A stretch of 52,003 bases of DNA from positions 1-52,003 of the IMG/VR virus record IMGVR_UViG_3300015360_000006. One strand, given 5' to 3'. Below the pieces are notes generated by a model. The model saw only the letters and a list, made by a program, of their open reading frames with translations. It was not told where the DNA came from and ran no database searches. Positions 1-52,003 of the stretch are shown piece after piece. Source of the stretch: a virus. Taxonomy: Duplodnaviria > Caudoviricetes. Within the stretch, counting starts at the first letter, position 1. Each line of letters begins with the position of its first letter. Made by a program: the position numbers and the translations under genes.

Positions 1-123
1 ATGTTCGCCGCTTGTACGCTTGCATTCAACTTCGCGAACTCGGCCTTCAATGGGATGAGATCGCCGAACAATGGGACTGGAGTGCTAATGCCTAAGACCA
101 TTCACAAGGCTGCAATGGCAGCA
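1..123. repeat. Terminal direct repeat (circular assembly overlap), copy 1
   Basis: 1-123 is identical to 51881-52003. It falls inside the bEBP coding sequence, so it is an assembly overlap rather than a biological DTR. Confidence 0.95.
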
Positions 124-684
124 CATTCTATCAGCGCCGCCGGACACAACGGCTACAACGCACGCGATGCCGCGGCACTGACGCGACTGGCGGCGCGATG
201 GCGCGCGAACAAGCAGAAGCCAATGCTTATCTCGGGTGAGACCTTTATGGTTACGCCTAGGTCCATGCAGATTTATTTGTACCGTGCGCGGTCGTACGTT
301 CGAGACAACCTGAATAACTATCCAGCGGATCTCATCACACTTACTGAGATGATGACATTCAAATTGGTGAAAGGTGATGTCATTATCTATGTTGCACCGC
401 GCAACAGATTGTCAGTCATTGCGGACACCACTGTGAGTGCCTTGGGCAAGGCAACAGGTCACGACTACAACGCCAAGCAATTGTTTGTGCACTGGATCAC
501 AAAGCCACACGATGCCGGCGAGTACCTAGACATCCCGGGCGATTACTCGCCCGACGATTTCACTTGGTTCGCCGATCAGGCGAGAGAGTACCGCGGCATT
601 ATCCACATCGTACAAGATGCTCAGAACCTTAGGGTTATCTGGGATAGCGAAAGAGTAGGAGGGTCAGATGAAAGTCCTTGGTAA
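88..684 (+). CDS. Hypothetical protein (198 aa) coupled to the bEBP gene
   Basis: On the circle, ATG at 88 overlaps the bEBP stop (ATGCCTAA). The ORF-track start at 1 is an artefact of the cut. Confidence 0.75.
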   Translation: MPKTIHKAAMAAHSISAAGHNGYNARDAAALTRLAARWRANKQKPMLISGETFMVTPRSMQIYLYRARSYVRDNLNNYPADLITLTEMMTFKLVKGDVIIYVAPRNRLSVIADTTVSALGKATGHDYNAKQLFVHWITKPHDAGEYLDIPGDYSPDDFTWFADQAREYRGIIHIVQDAQNLRVIWDSERVGGSDESPW

Positions 685-2729: not shown

Positions 2730-4196
2730 ATGAATACAGCATTGACACAAAAATTAGGGCAGACGTTAGTCTTGTCGCCGCAACTTCAACAGTCGCTGGC
2801 GGTCCTTGCGGCACCCGTACTGGAGTTGCGCGCGTTAGTCTCGAAAGAGTTAGAAAGCAATCCACTGCTCGAGTCGGTCAGCGATGTCGAGGAATCTGTG
2901 GAGGCGCGCGAGACTCGCGAAGATATGGAGGCCGCCATGGCCGATCCGCACGAGCCGCCGTTGGATGTGCAGTACGACCCGGCGAAGGAACCTGCGGCCG
3001 AAGACTCTGACTTCGACAAGGAGTTGCGCAGCTTATTAGAACTTGACCGCGACCTGTACGATTCACAATCGCTAGGCTCACTGAACACTTCATCGGATGC
3101 CGACGAGGAGCGCAGGCAATTCATGCTTGACTCGGCCAAGGCACCGCACACTTTGCAAGAGGAACTTGAGCAGCAGGTTCAAGGTATGCTCAATCTGACA
3201 TACGACGCTCGAGACGAGGCAATGGTATTTACACAGAACATTGATGAGCGCGGGTACTTGAATGTCCCATCAGATTTGTTCACTGAACATTTCATCGTGA
3301 GCATGCAGATGGTGCTTGAACCGCCGGGCATTGGCGCACGTAGCTTGCGCGAATCATTGAGGATTCAAACGATGCGCCATGCAAATCCCAACACGTTAGC
3401 GCTGTCTATCTTGGATTGGCACTTTGAGTTATTAAGTAAGCGCAAGTTTAATACAATTGCGGAGATTCTTGGTCTGGATTATGACGAGGTGTGCGATGCG
3501 TGCGCGTGGATTGCCAAGTTAAATCCCTATCCGGCGGCGCAATTCTACAACGCTGACAGCTCAGTTGTGACGCCAGAGCTTGATGTCGTTGCCGTCGCTG
3601 GTGTCATGGAAGTTCACCAACGCTCGGATTACTTACCCAATCTGCGCATAAGCAGTGGCGTCGCGCGCTTGGTAACTCATGCGGCGACCGACGCGACGAC
3701 GCGTGACTACATTCGCGAGAAGATCAGAGCGGGTAAGTTCTTCATCCGTAGTATTCATCAGCGACAGAATACAATTCTCCGCGTGGCAACTGAAATTGTA
3801 CGGCGGCAACATAATTTCTTTGCAAGTGGCAACGTCCTTGAATTACTACCGCTGACCATGTCGCAAGTTGCCGATGCCGTCGGCGTGCACGAGACCACCG
3901 TGAGCCGTGCGGTTTCCGGTAAGTACATGAGCACACCGCATGGAGTTCTTGAGTTGCGTTACTTCTTCTCATGCGGTGTGGCGAACGCGAGCGGAGTCGA
4001 CACGTCGAATCGCTCAGTCAAGTTGATGCTGGTGGAGATCATCGCGGGCGAGGACAAGAAGAATCCTTACTCGGATGAAGCCTTGGTTGCAGTATTGAAC
4101 TCCCGCGGCATGTGCATCGCCCGGCGCACGGCGGCCAAGTATCGCGCAGAGCATAACATTCTGCCGCGTCACTTGCGTGTAATTCATGGCACGTAG
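2730..4196 (+). CDS. rpoN: RNA polymerase sigma-54 factor
   Basis: Region I QxL...LSPQLQQSLAVL, NPLLE, IDERGYL, EPPGIGARSLRESL, HTH region PLTMSQVADAVGVHETTVSRAVSGKY, RpoN box ARRTAAKYR. Confidence 0.97.
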   Translation: MNTALTQKLGQTLVLSPQLQQSLAVLAAPVLELRALVSKELESNPLLESVSDVEESVEARETREDMEAAMADPHEPPLDVQYDPAKEPAAEDSDFDKELRSLLELDRDLYDSQSLGSLNTSSDADEERRQFMLDSAKAPHTLQEELEQQVQGMLNLTYDARDEAMVFTQNIDERGYLNVPSDLFTEHFIVSMQMVLEPPGIGARSLRESLRIQTMRHANPNTLALSILDWHFELLSKRKFNTIAEILGLDYDEVCDACAWIAKLNPYPAAQFYNADSSVVTPELDVVAVAGVMEVHQRSDYLPNLRISSGVARLVTHAATDATTRDYIREKIRAGKFFIRSIHQRQNTILRVATEIVRRQHNFFASGNVLELLPLTMSQVADAVGVHETTVSRAVSGKYMSTPHGVLELRYFFSCGVANASGVDTSNRSVKLMLVEIIAGEDKKNPYSDEALVAVLNSRGMCIARRTAAKYRAEHNILPRHLRVIHGT

Positions 4197-4202
4197 GCAG
4201 CT
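4187..4202 (+). promoter_or_regulatory. Sigma54 (-24/-12) promoter overlapping the rpoN stop codon
   Basis: TGGCACG-TAGG-CAGC-T with exact GG-N10-GC spacing, pointing into the SSB/replication genes. Confidence 0.7.
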
Positions 4203-5056: not shown

Positions 5057-5060
5057 CAAT

Positions 5061-34191: not shown

Positions 34192-34217
34192 AGAATTAAG
34201 TTGATTGACTTGGAGGA

Positions 34218-35510: not shown

Positions 35511-35655
35511 ATTAGTTGAAACTTATCGGTGGAAATAAAAAAAAAACCACCGATGGATTAATTACGGGAACTTTTGAGGTTCACCGCAATATCACCATAG
35601 GTGGCTATTGCTGGTCTGCGAGAGACTCGCAGAATACTTACTCTAGGACTATTTT

Positions 35656-35672
35656 TGCTGGAAGTATGCCAA
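35656..35672 (-). promoter_or_regulatory. Sigma54 (-24/-12) promoter for the capsid gene
   Basis: Minus strand TTGGCATA-CTTC-CAGC-A (GG-N10-GC), immediately after the scaffold stop. Confidence 0.7.
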
Positions 35673-39033: not shown

Positions 39034-40856
39034 TTGTAAATCAGGTTGTAAAATCCACTAACGATTAGTTTGCGCTCGACCATCGGATCAAAGTGTTCGG
39101 GCTCTTTGTAATTATCGAAAGCTCGATTCTCGTAATCTTGCACGAAGTGCGCCATACGTTCCTCCTTTGAGCCTTCGCTTACATTGTTTTCGGCGAGCAT
39201 TTCGGAAAGATCGTAGATAGAGTAAGCCAGAACGTAAGCGTCGGCGCAGTCTGGTGAAAATCCTAGGCGACCTTTCGCCTTCTTTTTGTCTTCCAGTTGA
39301 AGCTTCTGCTTCTCATTGGTGAAGAACTTACGCGTGGTAATTTGCTTCTTCCAGCGATCGTAGCATTCAAACTTGTGTGGCGGAATAATTTTACCCAGCT
39401 CAATCATTCGGCCAACTCGGAAGTACATCTCAGCGCCTATGTTCGCGTAATTCTCAGTGTTGAAAGCCGCCGATTGGTTGTTAACTCCGCGTATAGGATA
39501 GCCAGCTTCTTGCACGCGCCGCAAAATTGGCGCACCGATTCCGCCCATATCACCTGAGACATCTTCGTACTCGCACTTGAAATTTGACTTGCCGATCAAG
39601 AGTTGCTTGACAATCCAAGCGTGCAACTTGTTAGGAGAAGATGTAGTAATGACTGCGTGGTACAAGGGCTCATTGCCATGAACAATCCAGAACTCGGATA
39701 GATCAACGCCCAATCCAACGTCGAGCCCACCGGCCGGGCGCTGTCCCATTGTTTTCGCCGGCGGCGGAATGTAATCCAATCTCTCACCCGGAATGATGAC
39801 CTCTTCTGCGGATTCGTAGAACTCCGCCAAAATGCCTGTGCGATAGGGCGCAGAGTTCTCGCCGTGGTTCAGCCTAGTTTGCTCGATCGCCGCGGGCGAA
39901 ATGTTGGGACACTCAAACGCAGTGACACGGCGCGAGAAAGGAGTGCCCAGTTCGCACTTGGTAAACGAAGAACGCTCTACAGACTTGTAGAACTGACCGC
40001 ACCGCGCGCCGGGAGAAGATACCTGCAACCAATGAGAGTAACCATAGAAGCGCGAGAAAGCTTCGTACAGCGTATCTTTAATAGACTTAGCTTCACCGAT
40101 TACCACCATCATCTTCGATTCAGGGACTTCATAGAATGGGTGATAGCCTTCAACCTTTGATGGCTCGTCCGTACAGAATGCCCGCAATTCACTGCCCGTG
40201 TAATTGCACTTGATTGAGAATTCTTTTATGTCAAATACATCATCCTCGTGCAACGCATTGATTGTTTCGCACAGAGTTGAGATAGGCTTGAAGGTGTGCT
40301 CCTTAAGCTGGATATGCGACTCCGACGTGATGACTACGCGCGAACGCAGGTAGCGCATCATGAACCAAACTACTGTCGGCGTAATGATGTAAGTATCCTT
40401 ACCCGAAGAGTTGGCCGCCACCAGATTGTAAATGAATGGATTCTCTTTCGTCGGATCCTGCCACTCGCTGCGCGGCAGGCCTTCCAAATTCAAATCACCG
40501 CCCATGCGATGCTGTTCCTCTTGCTGCCATTCGTAGGGCTTAAGATGTGGATTGTAAGTTTTGAACAACACCAAAGGTGTCGGAAAGTCAAAGGTCTTAG
40601 GATTCGCGGGCCATGAGAATTTAGAGGACCGCGACGGCGCCGGGCGGTCCGCCCCCTCGGGTTCCCTGTCTTCCGGCGCGGCAGCGCCGGCCCGCGTCTT
40701 AAGCCCTGGAGAAGCGGGTACAGATTTGGGAAACTCGGCACCAAAGCCAGTGTCCACGCCATCGAACGCCGGATCGATTGCCGCCGAAGCGTGGGTAGAT
40801 TCCAGCGCCGCGCGCACCCGCAAAGCATTGAGCTGCTCTTCAGTAAGTTTAGGCAT
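39030..40856 (-). CDS. terL: Terminase large subunit
   Basis: PYEWQ, AANSSGKD, EGYH, VVIGEA, SSP, ILAEF, GLDVG, SPDCADA. Confidence 0.88.
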   Translation of the reverse strand: MPKLTEEQLNALRVRAALESTHASAAIDPAFDGVDTGFGAEFPKSVPASPGLKTRAGAAAPEDREPEGADRPAPSRSSKFSWPANPKTFDFPTPLVLFKTYNPHLKPYEWQQEEQHRMGGDLNLEGLPRSEWQDPTKENPFIYNLVAANSSGKDTYIITPTVVWFMMRYLRSRVVITSESHIQLKEHTFKPISTLCETINALHEDDVFDIKEFSIKCNYTGSELRAFCTDEPSKVEGYHPFYEVPESKMMVVIGEAKSIKDTLYEAFSRFYGYSHWLQVSSPGARCGQFYKSVERSSFTKCELGTPFSRRVTAFECPNISPAAIEQTRLNHGENSAPYRTGILAEFYESAEEVIIPGERLDYIPPPAKTMGQRPAGGLDVGLGVDLSEFWIVHGNEPLYHAVITTSSPNKLHAWIVKQLLIGKSNFKCEYEDVSGDMGGIGAPILRRVQEAGYPIRGVNNQSAAFNTENYANIGAEMYFRVGRMIELGKIIPPHKFECYDRWKKQITTRKFFTNEKQKLQLEDKKKAKGRLGFSPDCADAYVLAYSIYDLSEMLAENNVSEGSKEERMAHFVQDYENRAFDNYKEPEHFDPMVERKLIVSGFYNLIYK

Positions 40857-41235
40857 CGGTCGAAGGAGTTACATTCAGTGCAAGCTTGTGGCGAATGATT
40901 TTGGGCACCGCATTTTGCGCACATTCCAGCGCCGCAATTAATTGCAAAGACGCCAGCGCATTGATTTCGCGCGTCCGCGCCCGCGCATCATTGCGACCTT
41001 TTACTTCGTCCACCAACCACGTAAGGGCACTCATGCGCGTTTTGACCGCATTCTCTTTCCCAAAAGCGATGTGCTTCATTTCGAGAAGAATGGCCGGCAA
41101 GTCTTCAACGCCCGGCACGCCCAGCATCACGCGCACAGATTGCACTGATAAGTCTAAACCCGCCGCAATGTCCTCCGCCGAAAGAGAAGGGTCGCTCCGA
41201 GATAGTGCCAGAACTTGATCGTAGCCTGATGACAT
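40849..41235 (-). CDS. Terminase small subunit-like HTH protein
   Basis: N-terminal HTH LSAEDIAAGLDLSVQSVR; first late gene; start ATG 41235. Confidence 0.65.
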   Translation of the reverse strand: MSSGYDQVLALSRSDPSLSAEDIAAGLDLSVQSVRVMLGVPGVEDLPAILLEMKHIAFGKENAVKTRMSALTWLVDEVKGRNDARARTREINALASLQLIAALECAQNAVPKIIRHKLALNVTPSTDA

Positions 41236-41246
41236 GATTCGTTGGT

Positions 41247-41263
41247 TGCAGAGAGTGTGCCTT
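41247..41263 (-). promoter_or_regulatory. Sigma54 (-24/-12) late promoter
   Basis: Minus strand AAGGCACA-CTCT-CTGC-A (GG-N10-GC); predicted +1 near 41236, next to the terS ATG. Confidence 0.65.
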
Positions 41264-41377
41264 TGGATGGTTGTCAATTAGTTTATAGAGTTTCTAAAAT
41301 TTCAAAAATTTAAAAATTTAAGAGAATGTCTAGTTGTATTTCGCACTTCGTTTCTGGGGCTCCGTCATCACAAGCCT

Positions 41378-41414
41378 CTCGCCAAGCCTACCCTCGCCAT
41401 CCCATCCCTCGCCA
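41378..41414. repeat. Three CTCGCCA repeats with a 15-bp period
   Basis: Copies at 41378, 41393 and 41408. Confidence 0.8.
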
Positions 41415-41454
41415 CCCTTGTTCTCTCCCGACAGAAATGACAGGAATGATTCAA

Positions 41455-41700
41455 ATTGAACGTTCAATAGGGACTTAACGACTTAGGTTATATAGAATTG
41501 AATTATATATAGGTATAAGTGTGTTTATATATAAGTATAGGTATGTTATATTTATATAGGTATGTTTATATAAGTAAATAAATATATATATATAGGCATA
41601 TTAGTATACATTAATATATCAATTGGAAACGACATATAGATTAAAAAATACTTATATAATTCAACCTATATCCAAACTTTGAACCTATACCCTAGAATCT
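41455..41700. other. Very AT-rich non-coding region: candidate origin or packaging site
   Basis: Palindrome ATTGAACGTTCAAT (41455-41468), TA runs, repeated TATAGG(T/C)AT and inverted ACCTATA copies. Confidence 0.5.
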
Positions 41701-41809
41701 TCGACCAAGCGGCAAACCAAGGGAAAAAATCTTTTCCCCTTAAACCCTTGGTAATCAATAGCTTGGGGTGCCCAAAGGAGTGCCTTCTGAAAATAGTTCA
41801 AAGAAAGGG

Positions 41810-41838
41810 TTGCGTCCCTTGGCAGGATCTGCTAACCT
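41810..41838 (+). promoter_or_regulatory. Sigma70-type early promoter
   Basis: TTGCGT-N17-TAACCT with an extended -10 TG, 9 nt before the first early ATG. Confidence 0.6.
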
Positions 41839-41847
41839 ATAGGTGCA

Positions 41848-42033
41848 ATGAAGATCAACACTAACGAAACGGTAACGGCCAACGTGGCCGAAGATGTAAA
41901 GGAGACCCTGCGTCTCCTAAACGAAGCCATTGCGTTGCTAGACAAGGCAAAGTGTTACATGGTGACGGAAGAATCCGACCAACTGGAAGACGTGATTGAC
42001 GCACTTCGGAAAACCATTCACGAAATCAGGTAA
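41848..42033 (+). CDS. First early gene, small helical protein
   Basis: 61 aa, nearly leaderless after the sigma70 promoter. Confidence 0.7.
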   Translation: MKINTNETVTANVAEDVKETLRLLNEAIALLDKAKCYMVTEESDQLEDVIDALRKTIHEIR

Positions 42034-42043
42034 ACAAAGGGGA

Positions 42044-42330
42044 CTGGCCCCTTCTCAAGGTCCCCATGCGGGACTTTGAGAAGGTACCAGAAGGTACCTA
42101 GTGCCGTGACTCCCACGGACAAGATCGGAGGTTAGCAATCAAAGGATGCTGACTTCTACGAGCCGCAATAACGGCTCGCAACCGATCATTGAAATCTAGG
42201 AATCGGAAGTCGGAAATGATGCCTTGCTTTCGTAGCAAGATACTTTTCGGCCGAACAATTCCGAAGTAGGTGAATGGATTTCCTTCTATGCCTAGCGTTC
42301 CCATGTCGGGAGCGCGGACATAGAACAAGG
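42044..42330 (+). ncRNA. Highly structured intergenic RNA, segment 1
   Basis: Serial hairpins and a multibranch junction (GATCGG/CCGATC), CTTGCT-ttcg-TAGCAAG; no sizeable + strand ORF. Confidence 0.5.
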
Positions 42331-42838
42331 AAAAAAAAATCATGAGCAAAAACACGGAAGAAACCACGGCAGAAGAAACCACGGCCGCGGCAGAAGTTCT
42401 GGCGAGCGCGGAAGTCCGTGCCCGGCAGGCTCTGCCCCGTTTCCAAACGGAAACGGCTCTGCTAGTTGGACAGAAAGATGACGCAACCAGTGTTCAAGTG
42501 GTGAAGGCAATCGATGCCTTGCGTAGTACACTGGCAAAGGCTGCTAGTCGGTGCGCAGAGTCGGGAACGCTTTCTACAAGCCAGAAAAGCAAAGCAGGAG
42601 AGCGGAAATCGTCCCTGAAAGGGGCGAAGAGCTCCGGAGAAGATTCGGTCCCGATGGCCATTCAGGCCACAGTCACCCTCTTTGGCAAGGTTGCCAAAGA
42701 GACCGGCGGAGAGATCGACCGGATTCGGTTAGACTCCGAGTCAGCGTTGGCAATTCGGATTCAAGATTGGATCCGCGGGTTTTAAACCCAACATTCTAAC
42801 CCGCCTGAAAGGGCGGGCATAGAAGGAAATCCATTCAC
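42270..42838. repeat. 23-bp perfect inverted repeat (42270-42292 / 42816-42838) flanking one gene
   Basis: GTGAATGGATTTCCTTCTATGCC ... GGCATAGAAGGAAATCCATTCAC. Confidence 0.9.
42342..42785 (+). CDS. Early hypothetical protein (147 aa)
   Basis: AAGGA RBS; EETTA repeat at the N-terminus. Confidence 0.75.
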   Translation: MSKNTEETTAEETTAAAEVLASAEVRARQALPRFQTETALLVGQKDDATSVQVVKAIDALRSTLAKAASRCAESGTLSTSQKSKAGERKSSLKGAKSSGEDSVPMAIQATVTLFGKVAKETGGEIDRIRLDSESALAIRIQDWIRGF

Positions 42839-43100
42839 GGCGCGACAACGCAAAGTCTCCGGTTCTAGTCGCGCTTTAGAAATTCACCCTGACAAGGTGC
42901 AAGCGGAAACTCTGGGCAACGCGCCAAGAGGAAAAGCCGAAGTACTTCGGGCAACGCAGACAATATGCTATTCGCCCGGATGAAATCAGAAATGCAAGCT
43001 AAGGCTTGCAAGACTGGCTTTCCCCTTTAAGCGCATCAAATCTACCCCAGCGCGTTCTTTCTCAAGCACTTAGCCATATGCTAAGTGCTTGGGAAAGGAT
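42794..43100 (+). ncRNA. Highly structured intergenic RNA, segment 2
   Basis: Stems GCGCGAC/GTCGCGC, TGCAAGC/GCTTGCA, CGGGC/GCCCG, and a long terminal hairpin at 43054-43100. Confidence 0.5.
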
Positions 43101-43105
43101 ACGAA

Positions 43106-43312
43106 ATGACAGGCCATGAAGTGCTTGCCCGTCTTAGGGCAAGCGCGTCAATCGGCCGTCACGCTACGTTCAACCTTGAACGTAGCGTGACGGTCAGGGG
43201 CTTCGTACAGATTACGAAGCCTGTCAGTCGGCGAGCCGCCAAGTCGGTTGGCTCGCGCACCTTGACTCTCAAAGTCAAGAACTGGCAAATCACAGCCGCG
43301 CACTTTAACTAA
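43106..43312 (+). CDS. Early small basic protein
   Basis: GAAAGGA RBS before ATG 43106. Confidence 0.65.
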   Translation: MTGHEVLARLRASASIGRHATFNLERSVTVRGFVQITKPVSRRAAKSVGSRTLTLKVKNWQITAAHFN

Positions 43313-43327
43313 GTGCGCGGTCTTTTT
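43294..43327 (+). terminator. Early intrinsic terminator
   Basis: GCCGCGCACTT-taact-AAGTGCGCGGT then CTTTTT. Confidence 0.7.
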
Positions 43328-43379
43328 GCGTCCTTTCAAGTCTGCTCTCAAGTTTGAGGGCAGATAGGAAAGGAACAAA

Positions 43380-43856
43380 ATGCCCTCAAAAATCAGCACG
43401 TGGAACAATCAGCAAGGAAGCCGTGGGCGCTCGGCGCTCGCGGTGTTGGTGACTCCTGATGGAAATGTCCATCAGTTTCGTGGGGAATCGATTCCCCAAG
43501 TGTGTCACTCAGTGGTGACGGATCGCGAGAAGAAGGGCGCGTGGAGTAACTGCACGTTCGCCATCACGCATAATGACCAGACGAAATTTGTGTCGTGGCG
43601 GCAGGATTGGGACACCGGGCGCGACTGGCCCGGCTTGAGCTGGGAAACCAACATTGCGTGGCTTCAGGCGCTTGCACCGCAGGCAACCGAGGTCGGATTC
43701 CGGGCGTACATCGCACGGGAGCATCCCAAGGTTAGAACACGCTTGGACGAGTTCTATATCGCTGTAGGAGAGTTTGATCTTCCGGCGGTTCCGGTGATCC
43801 CAGAGATTCCCATGGAGATTCCGGCGGTCTCAGGATTCCGGAACACCGTCATGTAA
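43380..43856 (+). CDS. Early hypothetical protein
   Basis: GAAAGGA RBS; 158 aa. Confidence 0.75.
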   Translation: MPSKISTWNNQQGSRGRSALAVLVTPDGNVHQFRGESIPQVCHSVVTDREKKGAWSNCTFAITHNDQTKFVSWRQDWDTGRDWPGLSWETNIAWLQALAPQATEVGFRAYIAREHPKVRTRLDEFYIAVGEFDLPAVPVIPEIPMEIPAVSGFRNTVM

Positions 43857-43877
43857 AAAAAACAAACCAACAAACCA

Positions 43878-44076
43878 ATGACAGAACGGGAAGTAGTCCA
43901 AGCACTTGTCATCATGGGACGCGGCTTATAAGTCTATCGCCCGCAAAGCACCGCCTTTGCGAGCGGATGTTTTCAATGCATTCATCCACACGTACTATCC
44001 GGAACATGCTGAAAAGTTGGACTGGTACGACAATGCGGTCGCAGAGTTCGAAAACCCACTGAAAAGAAAGGAATAA
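43878..44076 (+). pseudogene. Frameshifted or TTG-started paralogue of the C-terminal half of 43380-43856
   Basis: The ATG 43878 frame stops after 17 aa; the +1 frame (43906-44076) reads SSWDAAYKSIARKAP...FNAFI...LDWYDNAVAEFENP. Confidence 0.55.
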
Positions 44077-44077
44077 A

Positions 44078-44398
44078 ATGACAGATCAATGGACGCAGGA
44101 AGAAGCGGTGCAACTTTGCACCGAAATCGAGAAAATCTGCACCAAGTATGGGTGCCACGTGGCACTGACCGGTGGACTGCTGTACAAGGCCGGTCCACGG
44201 AAGGATTGCGACCTGCTATTCTACAGGATCAGGCAATGGGATGAAATTGACATGGAAGGTCTGTGGGCTGGACTGTCAATAATTAGAATCAAACAAACAA
44301 GCGGATTTGGTTGGTGCTACAAGGCAACGTACAGAGGGAAGAAGATTGACTTCTTCTTCCCAGAGGAAGAAGGAGAAGAATATGTCAAACATGAATGA
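44078..44398 (+). CDS. Minimal nucleotidyltransferase-like protein (Pol beta fold)
   Basis: VALTGG.......KDCD plus a distal IDFF; GAAAGGA RBS. Confidence 0.65.
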   Translation: MTDQWTQEEAVQLCTEIEKICTKYGCHVALTGGLLYKAGPRKDCDLLFYRIRQWDEIDMEGLWAGLSIIRIKQTSGFGWCYKATYRGKKIDFFFPEEEGEEYVKHE

Positions 44399-44759
44399 AC
44401 AAAAAGAAAGCGTAGAATACCTGCGCGTCTACGCCCTCTTAGTCAACGCTCGCGAAAACTCACGAGAGGCCAACATCGCGCTCGCCAATTCCAATTGGAT
44501 GAGAAACGATTTGCAGAAAAGAATTGCCGAGCTCAAAACTTGTGCCGACAGTCTGCTGTCGGAATACCTACGCCTCTGTGAAATGTTAACCATGACTGAG
44601 GAACAGGTGAAAAAGGATAACAGCGCACACGTCGCCGCTCGAGCGATTGAAAACGATCTTCAAAAGAGAATTGCTGAGCTCACATCTTGTGATGAGAACG
44701 GCGAAAGCAACTACAACGACCACGAAGTGGAAAACGACAACAACAACAACAAAACATGA
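44382..44759 (+). CDS. Coiled-coil hypothetical protein
   Basis: NDLQKRIAEL occurs twice; start 44382 or 44391. Confidence 0.65.
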   Translation: MSNMNEQKESVEYLRVYALLVNARENSREANIALANSNWMRNDLQKRIAELKTCADSLLSEYLRLCEMLTMTEEQVKKDNSAHVAARAIENDLQKRIAELTSCDENGESNYNDHEVENDNNNNKT

Positions 44760-45160
44760 GTAACGTAAACAACAAAGCGGAACGCGCCCATTGGGTGGCG
44801 CGTGAACTATTGACCGGTATTGAGAATGACGGTGACTTCGCAGGAATGGATGTCGCCACGGCGCTGGCAGGGCGCGAATGCCCTCCAAAGGAACACATCG
44901 TCGAACGCTTGATTTGGAACGCCGATTGGCGGGCCAAGCTCAAGGTCATCCGCGCCGACGCCCAAATGAGGGCACTGAATGCCGTGGATTACGCGTATAC
45001 TGCCCACGCTTCGCAACCTGCTGCGCAAATTTACGACGCGCTTGCGCTCGCGGTCAGAGAGGCTAATGACCTGCGTACGCAGGTTAGTAAGCTGCATTAT
45101 GCAGCAGCCCGACTTCCACCAAAAGAGAATACTCTTTTTTGGATCAACGCAAGAAAGTAA
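44756..45160 (+). CDS. Hypothetical protein
   Basis: ATGA overlap. Confidence 0.65.
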   Translation: MSNVNNKAERAHWVARELLTGIENDGDFAGMDVATALAGRECPPKEHIVERLIWNADWRAKLKVIRADAQMRALNAVDYAYTAHASQPAAQIYDALALAVREANDLRTQVSKLHYAAARLPPKENTLFWINARK

Positions 45161-45163
45161 CAC

Positions 45164-45580
45164 ATGAAATACAAAAATGTGGATATCCGAGACTTACTCC
45201 CAGACGAACGTCCAAGGCTGCCGGAGTGGATTAAGGTCAAGTGGATTGCAGCTTTAAGGAGTGGCACCTACGAGCAAGGCATGAAGTCATTGCGCAAAGA
45301 CACCGCTTATTGTTGCCTCGGAGTGTTATCCGAGTTGCAGGGGAGGTTATTGTGCCATAGAAACGGATGGATTGACGGAGATAACGCGCTCCGCGATGGG
45401 TCGTTGGCGACAGACAACCCGCTGAATGAAATCTTGAATTACTCTGGTATACTGGCGGTGACGGTTTACCTAACAGTAGAAGGCTCTGAGTTTGTGTCGC
45501 ATTGCACAAGTTTGGCAGCACTCAACGACGCAGGTGCAACCTTTGATGAGATCGCATGGGTGATCGACAACGTATTCTGA
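45164..45580 (+). CDS. Phage hypothetical protein (WIAALRSG.Y.QG...CCLGVL family)
   Basis: Recurrent phage motif; ends LNDAGATFDEIA..I. Confidence 0.75.
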   Translation: MKYKNVDIRDLLPDERPRLPEWIKVKWIAALRSGTYEQGMKSLRKDTAYCCLGVLSELQGRLLCHRNGWIDGDNALRDGSLATDNPLNEILNYSGILAVTVYLTVEGSEFVSHCTSLAALNDAGATFDEIAWVIDNVF

Positions 45581-45581
45581 T

Positions 45582-45923
45582 ATGAACAAAGAACAAGCAA
45601 TCATGCTCATAGCGCATGAAGACTCGGTGGAAATCGATGAGCTTACCACCAACTGGCAGGATTACGGTGACAATGTTGCCACGACGCATGTCAAAGGACG
45701 CGCGTGGGTACTGGTCAACGGAGCTGTCTCACGACTCGGTCACGGCTTCTACAAGAAGGCGTTCAAATGGGTTGAGCATCCTCTGAGTTTCGAGGATTGG
45801 TGTGTCGAATCGGATGTAGCGGATAACTGTGGATACAAGCGTCAGGCATTCATCGAATACCTGACCAGGTGCAACAACCCACCTAACAGAAAATGTGTTG
45901 ACATCTGGCGTGACCAACAATAA
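45582..45923 (+). CDS. Hypothetical protein
   Basis: 113 aa in the operon. Confidence 0.65.
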   Translation: MNKEQAIMLIAHEDSVEIDELTTNWQDYGDNVATTHVKGRAWVLVNGAVSRLGHGFYKKAFKWVEHPLSFEDWCVESDVADNCGYKRQAFIEYLTRCNNPPNRKCVDIWRDQQ

Positions 45924-45927
45924 CAAT

Positions 45928-46035
45928 ATGAACAACAACGACCACGACGACAACGACAATATTCGCATTGCATTAGACTGTATTGGGGTGATCCTTTTAT
46001 TCTGCGCCGCAATCATGTTCTTTGCTGTACCCTGA
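45928..46035 (+). CDS. Small TM peptide 1 (35 aa)
   Basis: MNNNDHDDNDNIRIALDCIGVILLFCAAIMFFAVP. Confidence 0.6.
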   Translation: MNNNDHDDNDNIRIALDCIGVILLFCAAIMFFAVP

Positions 46036-46036
46036 T

Positions 46037-46174
46037 ATGAAAAACTTTAACAAGGATCCAATATGGATCATCACTTTGATCATCATGCTTATGGGATGGG
46101 GCATTAGCATTCTCACTGTCATCGCTTGCGTAGGCGGTGCGGTTTATCTAATCAGGGAATTTATCCTCAAATGA
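46037..46174 (+). CDS. Small TM peptide 2 (45 aa)
   Basis: MKNFNKDPIWIITLIIMLMGWGISILTVIACVGGAVYLIREFILK. Confidence 0.65.
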   Translation: MKNFNKDPIWIITLIIMLMGWGISILTVIACVGGAVYLIREFILK

Positions 46175-46299
46175 AAGACGATCTCAACGACCCAATGAAT
46201 ATTTTTACAATCTTTGTCATGTTCATGGCAGGTGTCTCCATAGTTTTAGGAACCGTACTTGGTGTGCTCCTTCTAGTCATTGAAATTGTCAAAGGCTAG
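46171..46299 (+). CDS. Small TM peptide 3 (42 aa)
   Basis: MKDDLNDPMNIFTIFVMFMAGVSIVLGTVLGVLLLVIEIVKG; ATGA overlap. Confidence 0.65.
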   Translation: MKDDLNDPMNIFTIFVMFMAGVSIVLGTVLGVLLLVIEIVKG

Positions 46300-46463
46300 G
46301 CTTGTGGACTTGGGACGCGCTTCGCGCGACAACTGGAAAGTAAAGTTCGTGTGGTCTGGGCTGCGTGCGTGAGTCGTGGTGCGGCTTGCTTCGCGCTGTC
46401 GCGCTCGCGCCGCATGGAACTTATCAAGTAGCACTTATCAATGGAACTTAGCAGAAAGGAAAC

Positions 46464-46763
46464 ATGACAAAAGAATATGTGTTAGTCATACTGGCTGGGC
46501 TGGTCAGAAATTATGCTCACCAAAAACTTCTCAATGGTAAATATACCGATGGCCGGACTCTACGTTACGCCGTGATCGGATCCTGCATCATTCTGGAGCA
46601 GGCACAGGCCCAGACGGTTCCAAAAACCGGTATCGCGGTCCGCAGCATGTACTTGATCGCTATGGTCACAGTATTCAGCGAGGAAATCGTGAACAAAGTG
46701 TCACAGGAGTTCGCACTTATCGTCGTGAGTATGGGATTGTTCGCTTTGAAAGAAAGTAAATGA
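46464..46763 (+). CDS. Hypothetical protein
   Basis: GAAAGGA RBS. Confidence 0.7.
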   Translation: MTKEYVLVILAGLVRNYAHQKLLNGKYTDGRTLRYAVIGSCIILEQAQAQTVPKTGIAVRSMYLIAMVTVFSEEIVNKVSQEFALIVVSMGLFALKESK

Positions 46764-46764
46764 G

Positions 46765-46941
46765 ATGAAGTACTTAGATCCAAGGGTGGGCGAGGAGCCC
46801 AAAGTCCGCACAGATGCGCATCAAATGGTCGCCAAGGCCATGCGCTCGTGGGCCGCACGGCGCGCCGCCGCCGGCCGACCACTCACAACCGATGGCCCGC
46901 GCCGCTCGCGCGGTGTCAACTATAGGAGAAGCTCCAAATGA
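46765..46941 (+). CDS. Small Arg-rich protein (58 aa)
   Basis: Fills the gap between neighbours; ATGA overlap with the next gene. Confidence 0.5.
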   Translation: MKYLDPRVGEEPKVRTDAHQMVAKAMRSWAARRAAAGRPLTTDGPRRSRGVNYRRSSK

Positions 46942-47150
46942 GTGACGAATGGAGTCCACGCGTAGGTGCAGCGCAGGCCGCCGCACTGGGTGCAATGCAC
47001 TCGGCACTGCGCATTGCCGCAACCACGGGCCGCACCACCGGCCCGGAGTTCGATCGTGTCAGCGCACTGGTGCGTGAGCGAGACGACATTATACTGGATG
47101 AAAGTGAGTTGACACCCGAATGTCTCGGGCAATTGGCTGGCGGTAATTGA
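46938..47150 (+). CDS. Hypothetical protein
   Basis: AGGAG upstream; 70 aa. Confidence 0.6.
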   Translation: MSDEWSPRVGAAQAAALGAMHSALRIAATTGRTTGPEFDRVSALVRERDDIILDESELTPECLGQLAGGN

Positions 47151-47175
47151 TAGAGTAGTCTGCTCCCATACAGGC

Positions 47176-47192
47176 TTGGCACGCACATAGCT
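47176..47192 (+). promoter_or_regulatory. Sigma54 (-24/-12) middle promoter
   Basis: Intergenic TTGGCACG-CACA-TAGC-T with a perfect -24 element and GG-N10-GC spacing. Confidence 0.75.
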
Positions 47193-47265
47193 CAGCGTGT
47201 GTTCAAGCTTGAAGGGGTTAGACAACACGACGTTGTATTCCCGACAAACACTAAAAGATAAATAA

Positions 47266-48000
47266 ATGAGTAACAAGGTTAAAGACAAGGTTCAGACGAC
47301 GGTCAGCCCCGTCCTTGACGACAACGGGCAGCCGTTGTTCATCAGCATCGGCGCGGCGCGGCTCCCCATGCTGGAGTACCACACGCCCGAGCACACCACG
47401 GTGTCGGGCGGCGTGACGAAGACGGCCGCCGCAAAGACCCTGTTCCGTGCGTCCATTCCAACGGTCGACTCGGTCCTCGCGCTCGTGGTGGCGGCGATCG
47501 CTGCTTGCGAAAACGATTCTGACCGTCTCGTTTTGACGGAGCGGATCTTTGGTCCGTGGCTCGCCACGGCCAGCGACCGGGCCTACGTGCCCGACCCCGT
47601 CAACATTGGCGAGACCCAGTGGTCCGAAGAGGCGATGGCGAAGGACCTGTCTTCGCCGCGCACCACCCGGAAGGCCGGGACCAGCATCGAAGACCTGCGC
47701 GCTGCGCACAACGATCTGAACAACCAGATCATCCCGTTGCTGGAGTTCCGTCTCCAGATGGGTGCCGGCGAGCCCATCGACTGGGACGCGGTGAGTTCCG
47801 CGGTTGGTCGTCACATTCGCGAGGAAGATGCACTCGTCGAGTATCTCATCACCCTCCGCGGCCAGCTGAAGGCCGTGAAGTGGGCCATCGCGGCTCGCGA
47901 GGAGACCCTCCAGAAGGCGGCCAAGACTCGCAGTGCGAAGGCCAAGCGCGCACCGGTCGAGGCCGTCGCCGACGCGACTGCCGAAGCAGTCCAAGCGTAA
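47266..48000 (+). CDS. Hypothetical protein, probably highly expressed
   Basis: Strong GC3 bias, A-rich leader, K/A-rich C-tail, own promoter and 3' hairpin. Confidence 0.75.
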   Translation: MSNKVKDKVQTTVSPVLDDNGQPLFISIGAARLPMLEYHTPEHTTVSGGVTKTAAAKTLFRASIPTVDSVLALVVAAIAACENDSDRLVLTERIFGPWLATASDRAYVPDPVNIGETQWSEEAMAKDLSSPRTTRKAGTSIEDLRAAHNDLNNQIIPLLEFRLQMGAGEPIDWDAVSSAVGRHIREEDALVEYLITLRGQLKAVKWAIAAREETLQKAAKTRSAKAKRAPVEAVADATAEAVQA

Positions 48001-48014
48001 GGCGTAGTCAAACG

Positions 48015-48043
48015 GAGCCCGTTGCTCACAAGGCAGCGGGCTT
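48015..48043 (+). terminator. Hairpin after the first middle gene
   Basis: GAGCCCGTTGCT-cacaa-GGCAGCGGGCTT with a weak U-tail. Confidence 0.5.
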
Positions 48044-48091
48044 AACTTTGCCTATGACAAAACCGTTTAAACTGTAACGACCATTACAGAT

Positions 48092-48670
48092 ATGATCTCC
48101 TTAACACCCCATGAATTAGGCGACCTGTTATTCTTCACCGACGACATGTCGCTGGACGAGCCGCGCGCATGGGCAATGCGCCACATCACGGACTTTCACA
48201 GCAGTGAGTGCCGTGTAATATCAGCGGCGCTTGCGCTGGCAGTCAAAGATGCGGATCCAAATGCTGACATCTTGTATGTGCAGGTAGCGGGGCCGGAGAA
48301 TAAGTTCTACATTCTCTGGCGCGCGCCGGACTGGAAGCGCTCGCGGCACCGCGCGTTCATGTTGCGCACTAGATTGGGCGCAGATCGCGCGGCATCTAAT
48401 GCGTTGCGTGAGTACACGCAGGAAGAGCTGGCCTATCGCAAGATTTGCGCAGACTGGTTGGCGCGTGTTGCCTCGGAGTTCTGCACTCTGGCGCCCGGTT
48501 ACAAGATCTCATGGACGCGCGACTCCATGCTAAAGCTGGCCTCGAAAGCCAACTATGATCTGACGCGTCTCTTCGACGTGCTAATCGACATGCTGGATGA
48601 AGACCTTCTGCGACAAGTGTGGGTCGCAGCACCTTACAGAAAAACAAACAAAGATAAATCAAATGAATAA
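48092..48670 (+). CDS. Hypothetical protein
   Basis: 192-aa ORF. Confidence 0.7.
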   Translation: MISLTPHELGDLLFFTDDMSLDEPRAWAMRHITDFHSSECRVISAALALAVKDADPNADILYVQVAGPENKFYILWRAPDWKRSRHRAFMLRTRLGADRAASNALREYTQEELAYRKICADWLARVASEFCTLAPGYKISWTRDSMLKLASKANYDLTRLFDVLIDMLDEDLLRQVWVAAPYRKTNKDKSNE

Positions 48671-48971
48671 GAAAACAAAGAAAATGTTGGCAGCATACTC
48701 AAAGTCTTGCGCCAAGCTCGAAGCACTGAGTGTCAGGTGTGCTAAGTTTATGGAGTTATACAACTCTAAGAATACCGAACATGAAGCCATGGTCGAGAAG
48801 TTCCGCGCACAACTTAGCAAGAAGCGCGCGCCGCTGAACTTGAAAGTCTCGAATGCAGGCCGAGTCTGCAAAGTGATGGAGGAGGAATGCCGCGCCATGC
48901 GTGTTGTCATGTTCCATACAGTGGATCCAGTTGACAAGGCATGCCTCTACGAACACCTGATGAAGGACTAA
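48663..48971 (+). CDS. Basic coiled-coil protein
   Basis: ATGAATAA overlap. Confidence 0.65.
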   Translation: MNKKTKKMLAAYSKSCAKLEALSVRCAKFMELYNSKNTEHEAMVEKFRAQLSKKRAPLNLKVSNAGRVCKVMEEECRAMRVVMFHTVDPVDKACLYEHLMKD

Positions 48972-48972
48972 C

Positions 48973-51117
48973 ATGCCCATCACGTTAACGAAGAAGGCAC
49001 TGGGCCTACAAGAAATGGAGAAGACACGGATTGCAAATAGCACCCGTGCAACCGCACTAGCTCAGTGCACTAGCGCCAAGGGGCGCATTGCTCTGGGAAA
49101 GGTTAAGGATTGGGCCGGACTTAGCGTCCAACTCAACTACGAAATCTCAGCGGGACTAACCTCCCTGCCATGGGAGCGTGAGAACTGGGAGATGTGCCTC
49201 GACTGGTTCGTGTCTAGCGCCGTCGCGCGCAGCACGGCGCTGTTCGACAGCAAGGCCATCGAGTCGGCCGCAGTTCTCGAAACTGTGGTGAAGAACAATG
49301 TCGCCTTTGCTAAAGTTCAACTGCGCCCGCAGCAGAAGAAAGCGCTGGACCAAATCATCGCAGCATACGAGGCCGGCAAGCGGGCCGTGCTGGTGGCAAT
49401 GGGCACTGGCCGCGGCAAGACTGTGGTCTTCGGCGCGTTCATCGAGTGGCTCAAGCGGCGCGGCACGGTCGACGGGGATAACTTCCTCTTGCCCAAGGCG
49501 TGCATCTTTACCAAGAAGCCTGCCGTCTGGTCGACGCGGTGGAAGATTGAAAACTTCTTCGACCTACATTGCACGGGTGACGTGCAAGATAAGATGGACG
49601 CAGAGGTTGGCGTGTTCCATTACAATGCACTCTCCGCCAAGAAGCACGCGTCCAAGTGGAAGCGTGATCCGAAGACTGGCGAGCTACTGCTTAACTCAGT
49701 AGAGATGTTCGGGAATGCATTCACATTCCCTGTGTCGGCACTCGTCGAGCCACTGAATCTTGTGGTGTTCGACGAATGTCACATGCTCAAGAAGCGCAGT
49801 GCCAAATGCACCAAGCGTGCGCGCGGCATCATGGCTAGCATAGCTGCCAAGAAGTGCTTCTATATTTTCACGTCTGCCACGCCGGCCGTGTGTCTGAATG
49901 ACACGATGCTGTTCAACATCGCTGCCGAATTGGCAACCGATGAGAACATGGCTACGTTTCTTGGCCGCTTCGGTGGCGATTCAAGTCAGGCAGATCCTAT
50001 TGCAATGCGCAAGTACAATGATTACTTGGGCATCCATATGGTCAAGCCGCCCGAAGACAAGCTGCCTTATAAGGTTACCAATCGCGTAGACTTGGTAGAC
50101 TTTCCATGCGCTGCCACCAAGGAGAAGTACATGGCGGCGGAGGCGGATTACATCCGTGCGGTTGAATCCTCTGGCGGCGTGGCTGGCGACACGTCTATGT
50201 CGCAGTTCATTATCTACCGACGATGCGCGGAGGTCTTGATGGCGCCTGTCTACGCAGACTACATGTGCCGCGCACGTGCTCGAGGCATCGCGCCCGTACT
50301 CGCCGTGTGCTTCATCGACACGGTCACTTCGGTGAGCGCCATCCTTGCGAAGCGTGGATGGAAACGCGAAGAGCTGTCCTATATCTGGGGCGGCGAGAAG
50401 ATCATCGAGCAGTCGGAGTGCTACACTACTGCCGAGATGGCTAAGATTCTTAGCCGTGCCGACGAGGAGATCCTCAAGTATACGGAGGCATTCGGTGAGC
50501 CTCCCGAAGATGACTACTTCTTCCTGACCCGCAAGGAGAAAGCGAAGTTCACGCGCACTAGGGCATACAACAAGGCTCGCTTGCGGCGCGGCGAGACTAA
50601 GCTTGAGCAGATCGAGCGCACGGAGATGCTCAAGGACTACAAGCTTGACAAGCAGACTGACCTCGAGCGTGAGGTGGAACTCGACAAGTTCCTTAAAGAT
50701 GTAACACTGGGTTGCATCTTCACGTTCGCCAGCGGTGGCACTGGCATCGATCTGGACAATCAGATCAAGGGTGGCCGGCCGCGCGAGTTGATCGCCACTG
50801 TCTGCTACTGGGCAGAGGAGTTCTTGCAGGCGTTCGGGCGGTGCGCCCGTGTCATGACGCAGTCAGATGTGTCGCACATCATCCTCATGTTCAAGGATAC
50901 ACTGCCTGTGCAGCATGTCCTTCCGCGATTGCTGCCCAAGTTGCGCAGCATCAAGATTCTTACGGGCATCGAGGGAGATCTCGAAGATGTTATGGCTACC
51001 GGGATTCGCAAGGGCCACAAGGCTGAGATCATCAAGGAATCCAAGGAGGTAGTGCAAGATGGTATCATCACCGACGAGGACGACGGCGATGACGACGATG
51101 ACGAAGACGAGAAATAA
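48973..51117 (+). CDS. Superfamily 2 helicase/ATPase
   Basis: LRPQQ, MGTGRGKT, DECH, SAT, GTGIDL, QAFGRCAR; acidic tail. Confidence 0.88.
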   Translation: MPITLTKKALGLQEMEKTRIANSTRATALAQCTSAKGRIALGKVKDWAGLSVQLNYEISAGLTSLPWERENWEMCLDWFVSSAVARSTALFDSKAIESAAVLETVVKNNVAFAKVQLRPQQKKALDQIIAAYEAGKRAVLVAMGTGRGKTVVFGAFIEWLKRRGTVDGDNFLLPKACIFTKKPAVWSTRWKIENFFDLHCTGDVQDKMDAEVGVFHYNALSAKKHASKWKRDPKTGELLLNSVEMFGNAFTFPVSALVEPLNLVVFDECHMLKKRSAKCTKRARGIMASIAAKKCFYIFTSATPAVCLNDTMLFNIAAELATDENMATFLGRFGGDSSQADPIAMRKYNDYLGIHMVKPPEDKLPYKVTNRVDLVDFPCAATKEKYMAAEADYIRAVESSGGVAGDTSMSQFIIYRRCAEVLMAPVYADYMCRARARGIAPVLAVCFIDTVTSVSAILAKRGWKREELSYIWGGEKIIEQSECYTTAEMAKILSRADEEILKYTEAFGEPPEDDYFFLTRKEKAKFTRTRAYNKARLRRGETKLEQIERTEMLKDYKLDKQTDLEREVELDKFLKDVTLGCIFTFASGGTGIDLDNQIKGGRPRELIATVCYWAEEFLQAFGRCARVMTQSDVSHIILMFKDTLPVQHVLPRLLPKLRSIKILTGIEGDLEDVMATGIRKGHKAEIIKESKEVVQDGIITDEDDGDDDDDEDEK

Positions 51118-51126
51118 ACATATCAT

Positions 51127-51975
51127 ATGCCCGTAACAATTAAGACTGGACACAAGCTGCCCTATGCAGTAGCAAGCGAGGCGTTCAAGACACGAGCGCG
51201 CATGACACGGGACGGCAGACTCGTTGAAAACAGTTACATCACGGACGATCCGTTCACGCTCAGCCAGCTTAGCTTGATTGATCAGGTGCGTGATCTCAAC
51301 ATGTCGGTCCTGATAACAGGTGAGTCGGGCACCGGCAAAGATATTATGGCCAAGCGACTCGGCCATCGGCACACGCTGGATGCTAGCGGGTTGCACACTA
51401 TGGCCAAGTACATCTCCGTCAACTGCGCAGGCATCACGGATTCACTGTTCGAGTCCGAGATGTTTGGCCACATCAAGGGATCATTCACCGGTGCACTGCG
51501 CGATCGCGCTGGATTCTTTCAAGCGGCGCACGGCGGCACGTTATTCCTTGACGAGATCGGCGATCTGCCTTTGCACCAGCAAGCTAAGTTGCTGCGTGTG
51601 CTAGAGAACAAAACGGTTACGCCAGTCGGCAGCACCGAGGAGATTCATGTGTCGCCTCGCATTGTGTGTGCTACCAACAAGAACTTAAGGCAAGCTATTA
51701 TTGCCGGAGAGTTTCGAGAGGACCTCTATTACCGCATCGCACAAGTTGTGGTATCAACCATCCCGTTACGCATGAGGTCGACGGATGTTGTGCTCATTGC
51801 CAACGAGATCATTGCGACGAATGACTGGACGCCGTTGGCTTCCAACGAGACCATTCCTACATGGGCCTACTCGCGCGGCAATGTTCGCCGCTTGTACGCT
51901 TGCATTCAACTTCGCGAACTCGGCCTTCAATGGGATGAGATCGCCGAACAATGGGACTGGAGTGCTAATGCCTAA
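51127..51975 (+). CDS. Sigma54-dependent transcriptional activator (bEBP), AAA+ domain only
   Basis: VLITGESGTGKD, VNCA, ESEMFGHIKGSFTGA, GGTLFLDEIG, QAKLLRVLE, ATN, FREDLYYRI, GNVR; no receiver domain and no C-terminal HTH. Confidence 0.95.
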   Translation: MPVTIKTGHKLPYAVASEAFKTRARMTRDGRLVENSYITDDPFTLSQLSLIDQVRDLNMSVLITGESGTGKDIMAKRLGHRHTLDASGLHTMAKYISVNCAGITDSLFESEMFGHIKGSFTGALRDRAGFFQAAHGGTLFLDEIGDLPLHQQAKLLRVLENKTVTPVGSTEEIHVSPRIVCATNKNLRQAIIAGEFREDLYYRIAQVVVSTIPLRMRSTDVVLIANEIIATNDWTPLASNETIPTWAYSRGNVRRLYACIQLRELGLQWDEIAEQWDWSANA

Positions 51976-52003
51976 GACCATTCACAAGGCTGCAATGGCA
52001 GCA
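51881..52003. repeat. Terminal direct repeat (circular assembly overlap), copy 2
   Basis: Identical to 1-123. Confidence 0.95.

Follow-up and report, generated by a model that had tools for sequence, protein, structure and literature searches.

A phage genome of 52,003 nucleotides from the IMG/VR collection (Duplodnaviria; Caudoviricetes; record IMGVR_UViG_3300015360_000006, positions 1 to 52,003, hereafter called the window) carries, at positions 51127 to 51975, a gene for a sigma-54 activator that consists of the central AAA+ domain and a short N-terminal tail. No helix-turn-helix (HTH), receiver or sensor domain was detected in it. On the conservation of its sequence, the identity of the product as a functional sigma-54 activator is close to certain, and it is likely that it works as an AAA+-only activator that acts from solution, with its timing set by its own synthesis and by positive feedback. 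Enhancer-free, constitutive action is plausible by analogy with a laboratory construct, and we infer ATPase activity, self-assembly, activation from solution, the genes driven and the timing. To our knowledge, sigma-54-dependent transcription has been regarded as a system of cells, with an activator that senses a signal and is tethered to DNA required at every promoter. The phage family described here appears to use a bare AAA+ motor as a timer for its own genes.

Architecture and fold of the activator

The gene, its parts and the activator motifs of its product are as follows.

51127..51975, plus strand: gene of the AAA+-only sigma-54 activator, 282 amino acids (open reading frame (ORF) list and Pfam)
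51127..51228, plus strand: codons 1-34, N-terminal tail, basic, predicted local distance difference test (pLDDT) below 50, one short helix (residues 13-21), not a domain
51223..51966, plus strand: codons 33-280, complete central AAA+ domain, made of an alpha/beta subdomain and a helical lid and nothing further
51478..51495, plus strand: residues 118-123, L1 loop GSFTGA, a variant of the GAFTGA sigma-54 contact motif
Residues 65-71: Walker A, GESGTGK
Residues 109-115: ESEMFGH
Residues 139-145: Walker B, LFLDEIG
Residues 196-203: FREDLYYR
Residues 251-256: GNVRRL (sensor II)

A GAFTGA-type L1 loop contacts Region I of sigma-54. The initial annotation of this gene, made from the letters alone, had read the loop as GSFTGA, which is indeed present at residues 118-123. 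It had also counted about 55 residues before Walker A and about 30 after sensor II; both ends are short as it said, but the actual numbers are 64 and 26.

In Pfam the protein matches PF00158 over residues 44-208 (E 3.3e-58; 196.5 bits against a cut-off of 20.2) and otherwise generic AAA models, with no match to HTH_8 or Response_reg at E <= 1. The same holds for its clade: PF00158 is matched in all 22 members of the clade alignment (A1), and HTH_8 or Response_reg in 0 of the 22 (E <= 0.01 in each case). In NCBIfam all matches are to the central portions of NifA, NtrC, PspF, RtcR and others and lie far under the full-length cut-offs, and the PHROGs match is phrog_7998 (E 8e-40), which is labelled 'unknown function'.

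An AlphaFold2 model built on 22 relatives has a mean pLDDT of 82; residues 1-34 and 279-282 fall below 50, and the rest forms one module of alpha/beta subdomain and helical lid. Residues 33-280 of the model superpose on residues 142-393 of FleQ with Z 25.7 and a root-mean-square deviation of 2.8 Å over 239-240 aligned residues; PspF 8-257 superposes on model residues 37-280 with Z 23.5, and NtrC1 138-384 and ZraR give Z 23-24. The superposed crystal constructs of FleQ, PspF and NtrC1 hold the central domain only, and because such structures cover model residues 33-280, no residues remain for a further domain. The 26 residues after GNVRRL align with the end of the lid in these structures. That the protein lacks a sensor and a Fis-type HTH, as the initial annotation had proposed, is borne out by Pfam and by the model with its superpositions, and a search of the terminal segments for an HTH or regulatory fold, by Pfam and in the AlphaFold2 model, found none.

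The start codon is supported by an N-terminus of the form MP(V/I/A) in 22 of 22 aligned relatives, and an in-frame TAA lies 9 nt 5' of it. Within the clade the tail is conserved at M1 and P2 (invariant) and P12 (nearly so), and residues 24-26 onward align with the linker region of NtrC1-type proteins (chain residues 126-134 onward). No or almost no variation is seen in the Walker A and B motifs, the L1 loop, FREDLYYR and GNVR, both in the 22 close short forms of A1 and in 24 diverse ones (alignment A4). K71, D142 and E143 are invariant in both alignments, and G118, T121 and G122 within the clade; GNVR (251-254) is invariant in A1, and in A4 G251 and R254 are invariant and N252 nearly so. The aligned relatives stop about 25-30 residues past GNVR with a conserved end, RELG..W..I.EQW.W.

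The short-activator family and its candidate promoters

The protein is one of many of its kind. A large protein database contains about 27 homologs, 208-306 amino acids long and 48-62% identical, whose contigs reach about 53 kb; the next-ranked matches there are bacterial receiver-AAA-HTH proteins aligned over their AAA part only. A profile scan of IMG/VR gave 52 loci. The ORF is 241-344 amino acids long in 42 of these, and the shortest (241-244 amino acids) have nearly no N-terminal tail; seven loci have forms of 567-748 amino acids, and for six of these the record is classed as provirus; a single ORF is interrupted by the end of its contig. In a tree of 81 AAA+ cores, which was made by a quick maximum-likelihood search and is unrooted with several long branches, a branch with a Shimodaira-Hasegawa-like approximate likelihood ratio (SH-aLRT) support of 99 separates 32 of the 33 short forms from 43 bacterial long forms.

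The search was widened with a profile of 24 diverse short forms run against 1.84 billion representatives of a library clustered at 50% identity. Among the best 150 representatives, 77 are no longer than 345 amino acids, and the L1 loop of these 77 reads GAFTGA in 33 and GSFTGA, the second commonest form, in 22. The top-scoring representatives (P0241-P0267) are chains of 389-1885 amino acids with two or three separate sigma-54-activator AAA+ stretches each.

In the GenBank phage collection, megablast with window positions 48000-52003 gave no match. Matches of tblastn with this activator, two other short viral activators and the phage RpoN described below were all under 60% identity (28-44% in the rows listed), and most of them sit in records that resemble bacterial contigs filed as phage. 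Such records include 'Acinetobacter phage MD-2021a' contigs as long as 305 kb, as well as 'phage' of Salmonella and Listeria with glnG, atoC, prpR, zraR or rpoN, and they account for nearly all activator and RpoN matches in that collection, which offered no usable cultured relative. By alignments and profiles, the activator belongs to a diverse family of short activators, carried mostly on phage contigs, and is not a one-off truncation.

Which promoters might such a protein serve? A generic sigma-54 weight scan of the window gave no consensus site, and three of its better matches lie at gene junctions. The pattern GGCAY-N5-YWGCW has four sites in the window, all at gene junctions and all oriented as the downstream genes. 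They were compared with three relatives (G2, G3 and G4), which are rebuilt contigs whose activator is 57% identical to that of the window.

47178..47192, plus strand: candidate promoter P_A (GGCACGCACATAGCT), 73 nt 5' of gene 47266, heading the block 47266..helicase..activator..rpoN; counterparts at the same junction at G2 15750, G3 522 and G4 1376
4188..4202, plus strand: candidate promoter P_B (GGCACGTAGGCAGCT), overlapping the last codons and stop of rpoN, 5' of DUF669, PolA and ligase; counterparts at G2 25431, G3 10584 and G4 11025
41247..41261, minus strand: candidate promoter P_C (GGCACACTCTCTGCA), 11 nt 5' of ATG 41235, first gene of the late block; counterpart at G2 9728
35656..35670, minus strand: candidate promoter P_D (GGCATACTTCCAGCA), 145 nt 5' of the 430-amino-acid capsid-like gene 34218-35510; counterparts at G2 4118 and G4 41547 (TGGCACGCTCTCTGCA)

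Taken together, G2, G3 and G4 have 11 matches to the pattern, all at five syntenic junctions, and in alignments with the relatives the motif stands as a conserved island amid diverged flanks. In the case of P_B the -24 element is formed by the last codons of rpoN (GGC ACG TAG). For the capsid-like gene, whose protein is 74% identical, the -24/-12 element comes just after the stop of the preceding gene both in the window (TTGGCATACTTCCAGCA) and in G4 (CTGGCACGCTCTCTGCA). The gene behind P_C (ATG 41235, minus strand) is an ORF of 128 amino acids, and the large terminase is next. On position and conservation, the assignment of P_A to P_D as promoters in the window is probable.

Sites of this kind also accompany the short activators of other phage clades. 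Of 42 short-activator loci, 20 have a sigma-54-type site (score >= 19) within 400 nt downstream of the activator gene and on its strand, and 0 of 42 have one upstream; the background (62 sites in 574,217 bp, two strands) predicts about one. The 20 loci form roughly four groups of related sequences rather than 20 independent events. These near-consensus TGGCACG-N4-YTGCT sites sit 22-264 nt 3' of the gene. Further intergenic sites are found in whole records: a complete genome (G005) has at least five, and G040, G020 and G033 have two apiece.

A few observations on the surroundings of these sites may be added. P_C ends 11 nt before its ATG, and a site after the ligase gene (G3 15063, G4 14672) ends 14-17 nt before an ATG, so that transcripts would be nearly leaderless if these are real promoters. 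Between P_D and the capsid-like gene lies a 145-nt leader (35511-35655, minus strand) whose conservation extends to G2 and G4 and for which two hairpins are predicted; its consensus fold has 44 pairs, five of them with changes on both sides, three of these in the first hairpin, and no Rfam match. The stretch of about 725 bp 5' of P_A (46541-47265) has no plus-strand ORF of at least 45 amino acids. It has two minus-strand ORFs (105 and 122 amino acids) with no family and no tblastn match in G4, and two minus-strand matches of the sigma-70 type; the stretch that lies 45-70 nt 5' of P_A is partly conserved between the window and G2. No Pfam family was found for the early genes or for these two ORFs. 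A search for the canonical TGGCAC-N5-TTGC with up to two mismatches was unusable, giving 88 matches against 68.5 expected, mostly inside genes. A scan of 41200-52003 for sigma-70-type signals gave 11 promoter-like matches against 8.0 expected and 17 terminator-like matches against 11.8, and did not identify early promoters for the first expression of the activator.

Supply of sigma-54 and gene setting

The phage also encodes a sigma-54 of its own, in the same plus-strand gene block as the activator.

2730..4196, plus strand: phage rpoN, 488 amino acids, with Region I, core-binding and DNA-binding domains and the RpoN box ARRTAAKYR; three Pfam domains

Its nearest relatives are 45-51% identical, and those with a name come mostly from Verrucomicrobiota (46-48%), a weak hint from sequence similarity that the host of the phage may be linked to that phylum. 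The activator had initially been tied to the phage RpoN. This tie needs revising, because the relatives with the 57% identical activator keep activator and promoters without rpoN. They retain the order helicase, activator, two small genes, nuclease, AAA_24, thymidylate synthase, DUF669, PolA and ligase, with no rpoN among them. For 50 of the 52 IMG/VR loci the viral record was scanned for Sigma54_DBD, and a match was found in 0 of these 50 records with an activator homolog, including 14 records estimated to be at least 90% complete. The rpoN of the window recurs at 95% identity in two short IMG/VR contigs only, and one database fragment is 98% identical. By these gene comparisons rpoN is a lineage-specific gene outside the conserved module. 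As the relatives keep the activator and the promoters without it, the activator family must normally use the sigma-54 of the host.

The pairing is found a second time. In a viral contig (L074), a 429-amino-acid RpoN with Region I (3860-5149) is followed about 3.8 kb downstream by an AAA+-only activator of 280 amino acids with GAFTGA (8931-9776), and L074, L075 and L076 make up a second, unrelated set of three viral contigs with RpoN and a short activator. The pairing of rpoN with a short activator consequently arose, or was kept, at least twice.

The window, 52,003 bp long and with 52% G+C, is complete as an IMG/VR virus record and has a 123-bp direct terminal repeat (window 1-123 = 51881-52003). 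DNA of the phage occurs in freshwater and microbial-mat habitats. The last 95 nt of the activator gene lie inside this repeat and hence recur at window 1-95. Genes on the plus strand run from about 41.3 kb, across the record ends, to 13.9 kb and include those for a helicase, a PD-(D/E)XK nuclease, an AAA_24 protein, a DUF669 protein, a family A DNA polymerase, a ligase and a thymidylate synthase. The minus-strand block, from 41.3 down to 14.1 kb, opens with a small ORF followed by the large terminase. The activator gene lies in the plus-strand block immediately 3' of the helicase gene, and its product is the only PF00158 protein that the window encodes. The next gene overlaps it.

88..684, plus strand: gene 3' of the activator, 198 amino acids; its ATG at 51968 (= window 88) overlaps the activator stop by 8 nt

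The product of this gene is 36-37% identical in relatives. It matches no family in Pfam or PHROGs, a protein atlas gives it low scores only, and a complex prediction with the activator scored 0.00, which is evidence neither for nor against an interaction. The two neighbours begin alike, with MPVTIK.. (51127) and MPKTIHK.. (51968) in the window and with starts such as MPVPIKR.. and MPVAIPR.. in relatives (L004 10880, L005 5468, L006 6318), and all the downstream proteins end in ESPW.

Elsewhere in the window, no Rfam family and no tRNA gene was found. Where the early and late blocks diverge, an AT-rich stretch (41480-41700) holds five overlapping direct repeats of the TATATAGGTAT type and two exact inverted repeats of 11-12 nt, 109-143 nt apart; this stretch is a candidate for an origin or a regulatory region. 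Within the early plus-strand region lies a strong two-way terminator-like hairpin (43295-43321; 10-11 pairs, seven of them G-C).

Proposed action, rival explanations and known systems

An outline of the proposed action is as follows. Since it has no DNA-binding domain, the activator should meet closed complexes of RNA polymerase and sigma-54 from solution. It would oligomerise and open these complexes by means of ATP hydrolysis and its GSFTGA loop. Its targets would be at least four phage promoters of the -24/-12 type with a consensus of about TTGGCAY-N5-YWGCW, of which P_A would serve its own operon (positive feedback), P_B the replication genes, P_C the packaging/late operon and P_D the capsid-like gene. 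The sigma-54 would be that of the host in the relatives and also a phage-encoded one in this phage. Because a sensor domain is missing, activity should follow the concentration of the activator, which would make it an ATP-dependent, low-leak switch for middle and late genes. Since P_A is upstream of the operon to which the activator (and, here, rpoN) belongs, positive feedback is predicted, after a first read-through from early promoters. It had been proposed that the timing is set by synthesis only; synthesis stands, but with the candidate P_A at the head of the operon the 'only' does not, and timing is probably by synthesis together with positive feedback.

The precedent for action from solution is DctD250, the 250-residue central domain of DctD (residues 141-390), which is constitutive, activates from solution and needs no enhancer or signal (PMC3844500; this source and the two other PMC articles below are cited from excerpts). 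It activates nearly all Salmonella sigma-54 promoters, about ten-fold less than the tethered cognate activator does (PMC3844500). High expression in the phage could offset such weaker activation from solution. By this analogy, the earlier suggestion that the phage protein is independent of enhancers and may also fire sigma-54 promoters of the host finds backing (PMC3844500).

Several points weigh against this account. NtrC-type activators without their N-terminal domain are inactive (PMC10084136), so that activity without a regulatory domain is not automatic, and FleT, the only natural bacterial precedent without both accessory domains, is described as acting with FleQ (PMC10084136). The account assigns no role to the conserved N-terminal tail or to the W-rich C-terminal end (RELG..W..I.EQW.W). 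In the tree the bacterial sample consists only of the proteins nearest to the query, and 8 of the 33 'short' rows were taken from the general protein database instead of IMG/VR. As for the promoters, the -12 element reads YAGCT or CTGCA, not TTGCW, and the window has no exact TGGCAC-N5-TTGC. The number of matches to the pattern is not above chance (4 against 2.87 expected; 32 of 100 shuffles reach 4), and the pattern was written after the sites had been seen. The promoter case consequently rests on position, orientation and synteny, and for the last of these G3 and G4 are closely related, which makes the independent comparisons fewer than their number suggests. No RNA runs are listed for window positions 34000-42000; the five runs listed are DNA in contig form, from which transcript starts cannot be read.

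Could the activator be something other than constitutive? It may be held or targeted in trans by a phage or host protein, or by its own 34-residue tail, with timing given by the relief of inhibition. Sensor-less activators controlled in trans are in print (PspF by PspA, HrpS by HrpV, FleQ by FleN; PMC10084136), the tail is conserved at M1, P2 and P12 and aligns in part with the NtrC1-type linker region, and the conserved gene 88..684 overlaps the activator stop by 8 nt. However, no known anti-activator family was found among the neighbours or the early genes scanned, a promoter takes the place of the next gene in other phage clades, so that no partner is conserved family-wide, and the family members of 241-244 amino acids manage nearly without a tail. 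We regard control of this kind as unlikely.

The fact that the phage encodes a single PF00158 protein would also suit a co-activator of the FleT type, which is unable to act alone and enters mixed rings with a DNA-binding activator of the host, redirecting or boosting it. This is improbable: the promoter-like sites begin 0-10 nt after the stop of the upstream gene, leaving no dedicated non-coding space upstream, the family extends across many phage clades, each of which would need a matching host partner, and DctD250 shows that a lone AAA+ domain can suffice (PMC3844500).

A takeover of the host would be a third possibility, in which indiscriminate firing of host sigma-54 promoters is the main job of the protein and the phage sites are incidental. 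DctD250 does turn on nearly the whole Salmonella sigma-54 regulon (PMC3844500), and the pattern count in the window would be expected of incidental sites, being no higher than chance. Nevertheless, the sites are kept at the same junctions across the relatives, and near-consensus sites stand directly 3' of the activator gene in several other clades, and we give takeover as the main job a low probability. A role in host takeover and a role at phage promoters are compatible with each other. Finally, an inactive remnant, or a decoy that titrates sigma-54, might be suspected from the truncation relative to bacterial proteins and from GSFTGA in place of GAFTGA, but is hardly credible for a protein whose catalytic and contact motifs are all conserved across a deep family, whose loop variant recurs in 22 of 77 short forms and whose gene keeps a fixed place in the relatives with the 57% identical activator.

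With the phage-timed AAA+-only activator as the preferred account, a wider one may be put forward tentatively, as a possibility on which we would not yet insist. It would be a self-contained phage sigma-54 system, comprising the phage's own sigma-54, a minimal enhancer-independent ATPase and variant -24/-12 promoters, in which the operon would latch by positive feedback and temporal control would be gated by ATP and almost free of leak. The short activators would then be a widespread dedicated family, and gain of rpoN, in two lineages, would free the phage from the sigma-54 of the host. An activator of about 250 residues, combined with short defined promoters and with the matching sigma-54 that this phage has, could be used as a compact module for orthogonal expression. 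A question is also raised: can an unregulated activator discriminate between sigma-54 promoters of phage and host, for example via the variant -12 element?

In searches of the main texts of freely available papers, no description was found of phage GAFTGA-type activators, of phage rpoN or of sigma-54-dependent phage late promoters. The nearest phage report found is that of Htm (Gp204) of the T4-like Mosigvirus AV110, which, in the excerpts available, resembles an enhancer-binding protein of bacteria (bEBP) in structure only: it has no GAFTGA loop, an altered Walker B (DD) and an extra N-terminal domain, whereas the activator of the window has a full PF00158 domain with its L1 loop and an intact Walker B.

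Precedents among bEBPs that lack domains are in print as the initial annotation had said, CtcC and FlgR without the DNA-binding domain and FleT without both (PMC3162934, PMC10084136). Activators that lack one or both accessory domains have been termed 'type Ic' and made up about 4% in one survey, FleT being one that lacks both (PMC3162934). FlgR of Helicobacter and CtcC of Chlamydia resemble the phage protein in being sigma-54 activators without a DNA-binding domain (PMC3162934) but differ in that they keep a receiver and are controlled by phosphorylation, and the phage protein has no receiver. FleT of Rhodobacter/Cereibacter sphaeroides is closer, as a natural activator with neither an N-terminal signal domain nor an HTH (PMC3162934, PMC10084136), but it is a flagellar regulator encoded on the chromosome, and it is believed to act through mixed oligomers formed with FleQ (PMC10084136). 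Compared with FleT by description only, the phage activator is phage-borne, is the sole PF00158 protein of its genome and belongs to a separate radiation that is found mostly on phage contigs. DctD250 and PspF(1-275) share with it the restriction to the central domain; these are laboratory truncations, in contrast to a natural gene with a conserved 34-residue tail, candidate promoters and its own sigma-54. If our account is true, nature has come to the very 'promiscuous, constitutive' AAA+ fragment that researchers constructed as a laboratory tool.

Late switches of phages are known to be made by factors of the sigma-70 family, such as gp55/gp33 of T4, gp28 of SPO1 and others. The proposed switch is like these in being a phage-timed change of promoter specificity that covers middle and late genes, and if it is true, a sigma-54-based switch joins the known modes of phage gene timing. 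It would differ from the switches of T4 and SPO1 in being built on sigma-54 and an AAA+ protein, with a need for ATP hydrolysis and a very low basal activity.

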